From Escherichia coli (GTDB lineage: Bacteria; Pseudomonadota; Gammaproteobacteria; Enterobacterales; Enterobacteriaceae): a stretch of 600 bases of DNA. The number at the start of each line of letters is the position of its first letter. Within the stretch, counting starts at the first letter, position 1. The notes below the pieces were generated by a model. The model saw only the letters and a program-made list of their open reading frames with translations. It was not told the DNA's origin and made no database searches. The DNA lies in the NCBI RefSeq assembly GCF_003334405.1, contig NZ_QOWM01000062.1, one strand, 5' to 3'. Positions 1 through 600 of this stretch are shown here, piece after piece. A program made the translations under genes and the position numbers.

Positions 1-600
1 CCCTCATCCTCGCTGCGGATAAGTTTGCCGGTCAGGTCGTGGTGATAACGCTGTGTGCGGCCGTCAAAGCCGGTTTCCTGTATCAGCCGGTCAAGTACAT
101 CGTAACGGAAGGTGGTGTGGCTGCCGTTTTCACTGGTCAGGCGGATGACCCGTCCGGCAGCATCGTATTCCATACTGCGCGTCAGCCCGCCCTGCGTGGT
201 ACGGACGGCCTTTCCCCACGCATCGTACTGTGTCCCGTTTCTGCTGCCGTCCGGGGCAATGACGGCGGTCAGGTCACCGGCGATGTTGTATTCATACCGC
301 GTTTCATGGCCCTGCGTGTCTTTCACGGCAATTAACTGTCCACGGCTGTCGTATGCGCGGTACTGACTCAGCCCTTCCTCGCGGTGCACCGCCGTCATCT
401 GCCCGAAGCGGTCATGGTCATAACGGGTTACATAACCGGAACAGTCGGTGAAGCTCAGCAACTGACCGTAACGGCTCCACGTCATGGTTTTCCGGCTGCC
501 GGTGGCATCTTCCGTTGCGCAGGGTAAGTCACTGTGTGGATTATCATAACGGTAGCGGGTGATATCGCCGTCAGGGGCAGTTTCCTGAATCAGACGGCCC
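1..600 (-). CDS. rhs: Rhs-family YD-repeat protein, core region (internal fragment, partial at both ends; codon phase: first full codon at + strand 599-597, last full codon at 5-3)
   Basis: Seen in sequence: the reverse-complement frame beginning at + position 599 is open for all 199 codons, while the other two minus-strand frames have stops within the first ~30 nt (TGA at RC 28-30; TGA at RC 9-11). The translation contains eight YD-repeat units with the canonical Rhs pattern (e.g. GDITRYRYDNPHSDL, GYVTRYDHDRFGQMTAV, GLSQYRAYDSRGQLIAV, GHETRYEYNIAGDLTAV, TQYDAWGKAVRT, MEYDAAGRVIRLT, FRYDVLDRLIQET, RYHHDLTGKLIRS). Established knowledge: this motif and spacing define the Rhs/YD-repeat core (Pfam RHS_repeat type), and the sequence strongly resembles enterobacterial Rhs cores from memory. 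Which paralog (rhsA, B, C, etc.) cannot be resolved from an internal core fragment, so only the family symbol is given. No database search was run. Confidence 0.93.

Follow-up and report, generated by a model that had tools for sequence, protein, structure and literature searches.

Does a stretch of an Rhs core protein in which the spacing between canonical YD motifs is about twice the usual length, and which holds both cysteines of the fragment encoded around it, differ in any meaningful way from the rest of the YD-repeat shell? The question was raised by the first-pass annotation of a 600 bp piece of Escherichia coli DNA, the whole of which is referred to here as the window. That annotation regarded the stretch as probably a degenerate repeat plus a loop, and at the same time as the one part of the fragment that departs from the regular repeat pattern.

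A single frame is open through the entire window (positions 1–599, minus strand). It continues past both window ends and yields a fragment of 199 amino acids upon translation. The window is part of rhsB in E. coli K-12 MG1655 (coding sequence at 3526–7761 of our locus L001), and the fragment corresponds to RhsB residues 493–691, which belong to the YD-repeat shell of the Rhs core. The nucleotide sequence of the window matches the cores of E. coli rhsA, rhsB and rhsC with 100% identity. Compared with the K-12 RhsB, RhsA and RhsC cores there is no difference, the fragment being RhsB itself. Of 5426 complete genomes, 3897 contain a match to the 600 bp stretch, the median copy number per genome being four. 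Its GC content is 59%. Two plus-strand open reading frames of 98 amino acids (39–335) and 84 amino acids (112–366) run antisense to the rhs frame and were taken as by-products of GC-rich coding DNA.

The assignment to the Rhs family is supported by several profiles. RhsB (L001, 3526–7758) scores 2643.8 bits against NCBIfam NF041261 (RHS element core protein) over profile positions 1–1261, the curated cut-off for this whole-protein HMM score being 2000 bits. The E-value for TIGR01643 is 1.4e-40, and the fragment contains five matches to the Pfam RHS_repeat family (PF05593), which places it among the YD/RHS-repeat proteins. Outside the window, a match to TIGR03696, the C-terminal Rhs-associated core domain, at RhsB 1170–1247 identifies the protein as an Rhs polymorphic toxin, and residues 1232–1236 read DPLGL, an instance of the DPxGL aspartyl autoprotease motif. 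The core (residues 1–1236) has 62% GC and the C-terminal tip that follows DPLGL has 37%, and this drop from core to tip is the classic composite architecture of Rhs elements. Near the N-terminus, the sequence P48-V49-N-P-L-L-G54-A55 can be compared with the T6SS Rhs autocleavage motif PVxxxxGE, from which it differs in ending in GA and not in GE. P48 and G54 are retained in 35/37 and 36/37 of the non-redundant relatives of RhsB, respectively.

The flagged segment covers fragment residues 20–54 (window 438–542, minus strand; RhsB 512–546) and has the sequence NPHSDLPCATEDATGSRKTMTWSRYGQLLSFTDCS; both the coordinates and the peptide are confirmed by translation. It is adjoined upstream by the canonical Y18-D19 (RhsB Y510-D511; window 543–548, minus strand), with Y510 conserved in 37/37 relatives, and the next canonical motif is Y60-D61 (RhsB Y552-D553; window 417–422, minus strand). 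Literal YD motifs occur at fragment positions 18, 60, 83, 125, 145 and 166, giving successive gaps of 42, 23, 42, 20 and 21 residues. If only literal motifs are counted, the interval of 42 residues is therefore indeed long compared with the 20–23 found elsewhere. It is nevertheless not the one irregular stretch, as a second gap of 42 residues is present in the same fragment between Y83-D84 and Y125-D126 (fragment residues 84–125; window 225–350), with Y104-N105 lying midway.

The long interval disappears when the register of the repeats is taken into account. One of the Pfam matches (fragment 42–76) spans the second half of the segment, and its alignment places model position 2 on S42, so that W41-S42 (RhsB W533-S534; window 474–479, minus strand) occupies a degenerate YD slot. 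The same register is obtained from generic YD repeats. When RhsB 421–760 was aligned to the top 150 representatives from a search of 1.84 billion representative proteins (1605 aligned stretches), the W533 slot was Tyr in 779/985 cases and the S534 slot was Asp in 717/990. This background consists nearly entirely of giant YD proteins with multiple cocoons, each of which accumulates its score over many stretches that are out of register, and only P0013, P0040, P0048 and P0135 among the search representatives are orthologous. In the aligned stretches of the relatives, some of which are also out of register, the W533 slot contains Trp 64 times and Tyr 34 times, and the S534 slot contains Asn 44, Ser 30 and Asp 12 times. 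Once W41-S42 is included, successive slots in the fragment are 23, 19, 23, 21, 21, 20, 21 and 21 residues apart, and the supposedly longer repeat interval resolves into 23 + 19 residues, inside the 19–23 range of the fragment. The gap between literal motifs thus appears doubled solely because the YD of the second unit has decayed to W-S. From this spacing it follows that the segment is a repeat with an enlarged turn followed by a repeat with a decayed YD, and not an insertion.

A structural model was obtained by running AlphaFold2 on RhsB 421–760, a 340-residue piece and not a closed shell, using an alignment of 37 relatives (alignment A2). The model has a mean pLDDT of 94.1 and is almost entirely strand and turn. 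According to DSSP, the strand ITRYR leads into an extended ten-residue non-strand turn, YDNPHSDLPC (fragment 18–27; window 519–548, minus strand; residues 90–99 in query numbering, block pLDDT 91), which takes the place of the usual five-residue YDxxG turn. This is followed by the three-residue strand ATE, the turn DATGS, the strand RKTMTW (fragment 36–41; window 477–494, minus strand; E108–113 in query numbering), the turn SRYGQ, the strand LLSFT (fragment 47–51; window 447–461, minus strand; E119–123), the turn DCSGY and the strand VTRYDH (E129–134). Beyond the long turn and the short strand, the flagged segment therefore consists of regular strands of five or six residues that alternate with five-residue turns. 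In Foldseek superpositions the model reaches TM-scores of 0.91 against Tse5 (r.m.s.d. 2.4 Å), 0.89 against Pseudomonas protegens RhsA, 0.89 against the Advenella VgrG-Rhs protein (PDB entry 8QJA) and 0.83–0.84 against Tse15. Between 338 and 345 columns are aligned to RhsA and Tse5 with an r.m.s.d. of 2.4–2.6 Å, which assigns the fragment to the β-cocoon fold.

The long turn is an insertion site in alignment A2, with approximately 1–30 extra residues in Pseudomonas, Tahibacter and especially the Burkholderiales. P518 within the turn is conserved in 35/37 relatives, and the E. coli RhsB version is among the shortest in the alignment. Insertions of about 10–30 residues in the RhsB 512–518 loop (A2 columns ∼130–155) are seen in Paracidovorax, Acidovorax, Curvibacter and Comamonas, and several Paracidovorax sequences carry a cysteine immediately before the conserved proline of the long turn (WCDQP).

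That the loop does take insertions in other genera, together with the 42-residue gap between literal motifs, might suggest that the segment is a true insertion in RhsB, namely an additional loop or mini-domain that is specific to this protein and decorates the shell. We consider this very improbable and have rejected it: the E. coli version of the region is among the shortest, the Pfam and generic alignments place a full repeat within the gap, and the regular hairpins of the AlphaFold2 model superpose on RhsA and Tse5. The segment instead comprises two consecutive β-hairpin repeat units in the wall of the RhsB β-cocoon, the shell around the C-terminal toxin. The first unit combines a canonical YD with the enlarged turn YDNPHSDLPC, the length of which varies among relatives, and the second carries the YD that has decayed to W-S; relative to its close homologues, RhsB has no insertion here. 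The original description as a degenerate repeat plus a loop is thus borne out by the Pfam register, the generic slot statistics, the predicted strands and turns, and the superposition on solved shells.

The only two cysteines of the fragment, residues 27 (RhsB C519) and 53 (RhsB C545), are both located in the flagged segment, as had been noted. Their number is not unusual, since the 15 cysteines of the 1411-residue RhsB lead to an expectation of 2.1 in 199 residues, and the probability that two randomly chosen positions are no more than 26 residues apart is P = 0.245. Chance is thus enough to account for the cysteine pattern. Cys27 (codon TGC; window 519–521, minus strand) is not conserved: among 37 non-redundant relatives its slot contains Thr in ten, Ile in eight, Cys in six, Ser in five, Val in five and Ala in one. 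Ala, Cys, Thr and Ser are also found there among enterobacterial homologue fragments, which are at most 349 amino acids long, derive mostly from Enterobacteriaceae and are too closely related to serve in a conservation argument. C519 is thus unconstrained and closes the long turn.

Two cysteines within 27 residues could in principle staple an irregular stretch together, either through a disulfide or by jointly binding a metal. As C519 is variable, such an arrangement is excluded as an explanation for the segment, and we regard its probability as close to negligible: in most relatives C519 is replaced by Thr, Ile, Ser, Val or Ala while C545 is retained, and proximity of this kind is expected by chance. 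Rhs proteins moreover fold in the reducing cytoplasm. Judging from the sequences, the two cysteines probably do not act together.

The second cysteine behaves differently. Cys53 (RhsB C545; codon TGT; window 441–443, minus strand) lies in the hairpin turn T-D-C-S-G (fragment 51–55; RhsB 543–547; window 435–449, minus strand), which the AlphaFold2 model places between strands E119–123 and E129–134. To sample this turn broadly, a single genome from each of 100 044 species was scanned with the pattern [DN]RL[TVI][QEL][EQ]xGFD, which lies about 120 residues downstream; this seed does not select for the cysteine, but it confines the sample to the clade that carries the pattern. The 80 loci recovered belong to Enterobacterales, Pseudomonas, Tahibacter, Azoarcus and many Burkholderiales, and in the in-register alignments from these loci the turn reads (T)-D-C-S-(G/N/A/D) with almost no exceptions. 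Some enterobacterial-type Rhs cores were found on short contigs with unexpected labels: an Oscillospiraceae MAG (L002, 100% identical to the query), Streptomyces griseoloalbus (L003, 99%, 544 bp), a Lentisphaerae MAG (L005, 82%) and an Akkermansia muciniphila MAG (L016, 66%). These look like contamination or mis-binning rather than true distribution.

Conservation was quantified in 37 full-length sequences that are less than 80% identical to each other, 24 of which are only 31–39% identical to RhsB in this region. D544 is present in 37/37, C545 in 36/37 and S546 in 37/37, and the preceding threonine (T123 in AlphaFold2 query numbering) is almost invariant (≥90%). A level of 36/37 or higher is attained in just 75 of the 1189 core columns, and these are mostly Gly, Arg, Asp, Leu or Tyr; C545 is the sole cysteine among the near-invariant residues of the Rhs core of this clade. 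Outside the window RhsB has further, partly conserved cysteines. Two are in the N-terminal PAAR-like region, C36 in 25/37 relatives and C39 in 29/37, and a third, C1148 (24/37), lies close to the C-terminal core domain. The only relative without C545, from a Burkholderiaceae MAG (L049:5473–6513), has TDRSG with the codon CGC, a single transition away from TGC, which may reflect either a true amino-acid change or a mistake in the assembly. The first-pass annotation had regarded its observation as refuted if the segment proved standard and conserved in all Rhs cores and the cysteines did not. The segment is indeed standard and conserved in this Rhs clade and C27 is variable, but C53 is nearly invariant.

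In generic YD repeats the C545 slot is Ala in 429 and Pro in 224 of 1099 cases, which corresponds to the canonical D-(A/P)-x-G hairpin turn. C545 occupies the second position of a D-x-x-G turn, which is filled by Ala or Pro in generic repeats. A motif scan of the 20 largest generic YD proteins found DC[ST][GN] only in P0010, at an unrelated position, and in the orthologue P0013. Further turn motifs that are invariant or almost so in the clade and deviate from the generic pattern are ETGFDGR (fragment 175–181; window 57–77) and LTSENG (fragment 154–159; window 123–140). Of these, E649-N650 and G669-F670-D671 are present in 37/37 relatives and N648 in 35/37, and the motifs are common to Tse5 and partly to RhsA and Advenella VgrG-Rhs.

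The solved shells show how far the turn extends. The homologous T-D-C-S-G turn is found in four of them. The best solved relative of the fragment is Pseudomonas aeruginosa Tse5 (PDB entries 8CP6 and 9I9Y; E = 4e-45), which shares W-N in the degenerate YD slot, TDCSG (in LTDCSGQV), LTNENG and ETGFDGR. It differs in being only about 33% identical, in having Pro-Thr where RhsB has Pro-Cys at the C519 slot and in a long turn with one additional residue. P. protegens RhsA (PDB entry 7Q97) has the same shell register and L-D-C-S-G (in LDCSGYP), with the cysteine at chain index 667, but belongs to the class I prePAAR effectors and has a transmembrane domain. In Acinetobacter baumannii Tse15 (PDB entries 8UY4 and 8UXT) and Advenella VgrG-Rhs (8QJA) the YD slot is Y-N and (T/S)-D-C-S-(G/N) is kept, as YTDCSGKS and YSDCSNK, respectively, at 22–24% identity in the Foldseek alignment. 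These two proteins differ from RhsB in their N-terminal delivery domains (a clade domain and a VgrG fusion, respectively), and Tse15 retains the NENG and GFDG motifs only in part. The turn is fixed across a clade that includes E. coli RhsA–E, Tse5, P. protegens RhsA, Tse15 and Advenella VgrG-Rhs.

Two further T6SS Rhs β-cocoons built from the same YD hairpins, the Salmonella bongori PAAR-Rhs protein (PDB entries 8QJD, 8QJB and 8QJC) and Vibrio parahaemolyticus RhsP (PDB entry 8H8A), have no cysteine at this turn in the best-aligned register, where they read T-D-G-E-G (in FTDGEGN) and S-S-P-T-G (in SSPTGR), respectively. The cysteine is thus a typical feature of a single large clade and not of Rhs proteins in general. 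The Tc toxin BC cocoons (TcdB2–TccC3 and YenB/YenC2) and the teneurin YD shells belong to the same repeat and fold class but are distant (TM-scores of 0.3–0.75). The structural papers on Tse5, Tre23, Tse15 and the S. bongori and Advenella Rhs proteins do not mention this conserved cysteine, and literature searches for a conserved Rhs cysteine or for TDCSG turned up nothing pertinent; the only Rhs cysteine under discussion there is C538 of RhsA.

With a median of four near-identical copies of the 600 bp stretch per E. coli genome, the invariance of TDCSG could be thought to reflect homogenization at the DNA level, through gene conversion among Rhs cores, and not selection on the protein. The motif is, however, kept in Pseudomonas, Acinetobacter, Burkholderiales, Tahibacter and Azoarcus at 31–40% protein identity, and both TGC and TGT are in use (28 and eight relatives, respectively, against a single CGC). 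Conservation across orders together with synonymous codon variation led us to reject gene conversion, which is extremely improbable as the cause. Most likely, C545 has a site-specific packing or hydrogen-bonding role at the turn, in the middle layer of the spiral, and is not involved in chemistry. Two observations count against this purely structural reading. In the same slot of other RhsB turns Ala, Pro, Thr and Glu are tolerated, and generic turn geometry therefore fails to explain a fixed cysteine. Three adjacent invariant residues (D-C-S) at 31–40% overall identity also exceed the conservation of most wall positions.

The alternative is that the D544-C545-S546 turn is a functional site of the Rhs clade, with the thiol of C545 taking part in chemistry. 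Possible roles would be those of a nucleophile or general base in N-terminal autoproteolysis, or of a redox- or metal-dependent switch that helps to open the cocoon and release the toxin after delivery. A near-invariant D-C-S where the slot is normally Ala or Pro, and the status of C545 as the only near-invariant cysteine of the core, would fit such a role. The T6SS Rhs family as a whole has been described as undergoing N-terminal cleavage, yet S. bongori Rhs, with Gly in this slot, and RhsP, with Pro, have no cysteine here. The cysteine also goes unmentioned in the structure papers that we searched, and its homologue at 7Q97 index 667 is absent from the candidates that the authors of the P. 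protegens RhsA structure considered for the cleavage site. Near that site, at P305, these authors list only C538, H530 and H555 together with D318–320 and see no other obvious candidates (PMC8765631). The C538A variant is still cleaved at the N-terminus, and the cleavage mechanism is stated to be unknown (PMC8765631).

According to the printed alignment, C538, H530 and H555 of RhsA correspond to C478, H470 and H495 in the chain index of 7Q97. C538 is located approximately 190 residues upstream of the C545 homologue and hence is a different cysteine. RhsB retains the histidine equivalent to H530 (H349, 36/37), and as read from the RhsA alignment a cysteine at the C538 position is absent from RhsB. 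C545 itself has no histidine at −8 or +17 and thus does not form the cysteine protease-like site of class I prePAAR Rhs proteins. Overall, an active thiol, whether in autoproteolysis or in opening of the cocoon, seems unlikely to us. We are rather confident of the more conservative description of the segment as two repeat units of the wall, in which C519 is unconstrained, C545 is fixed in a turn where it probably serves packing, and the two cysteines do not cooperate.

As originally posed, the observation matters little: the segment is an ordinary and known structure in a textbook Rhs YD-repeat wall, with one drifted motif, and its gene is among the best known of E. coli. The point that remains is C545, which is kept across Enterobacterales, Pseudomonas, Acinetobacter and Burkholderiales and is not discussed in the structural papers searched. 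N-terminal cleavage of RhsA is explicitly an open matter in the literature and forms part of the question posed by this residue. If functional, C545 would bear on the processing or the opening of Rhs containers.
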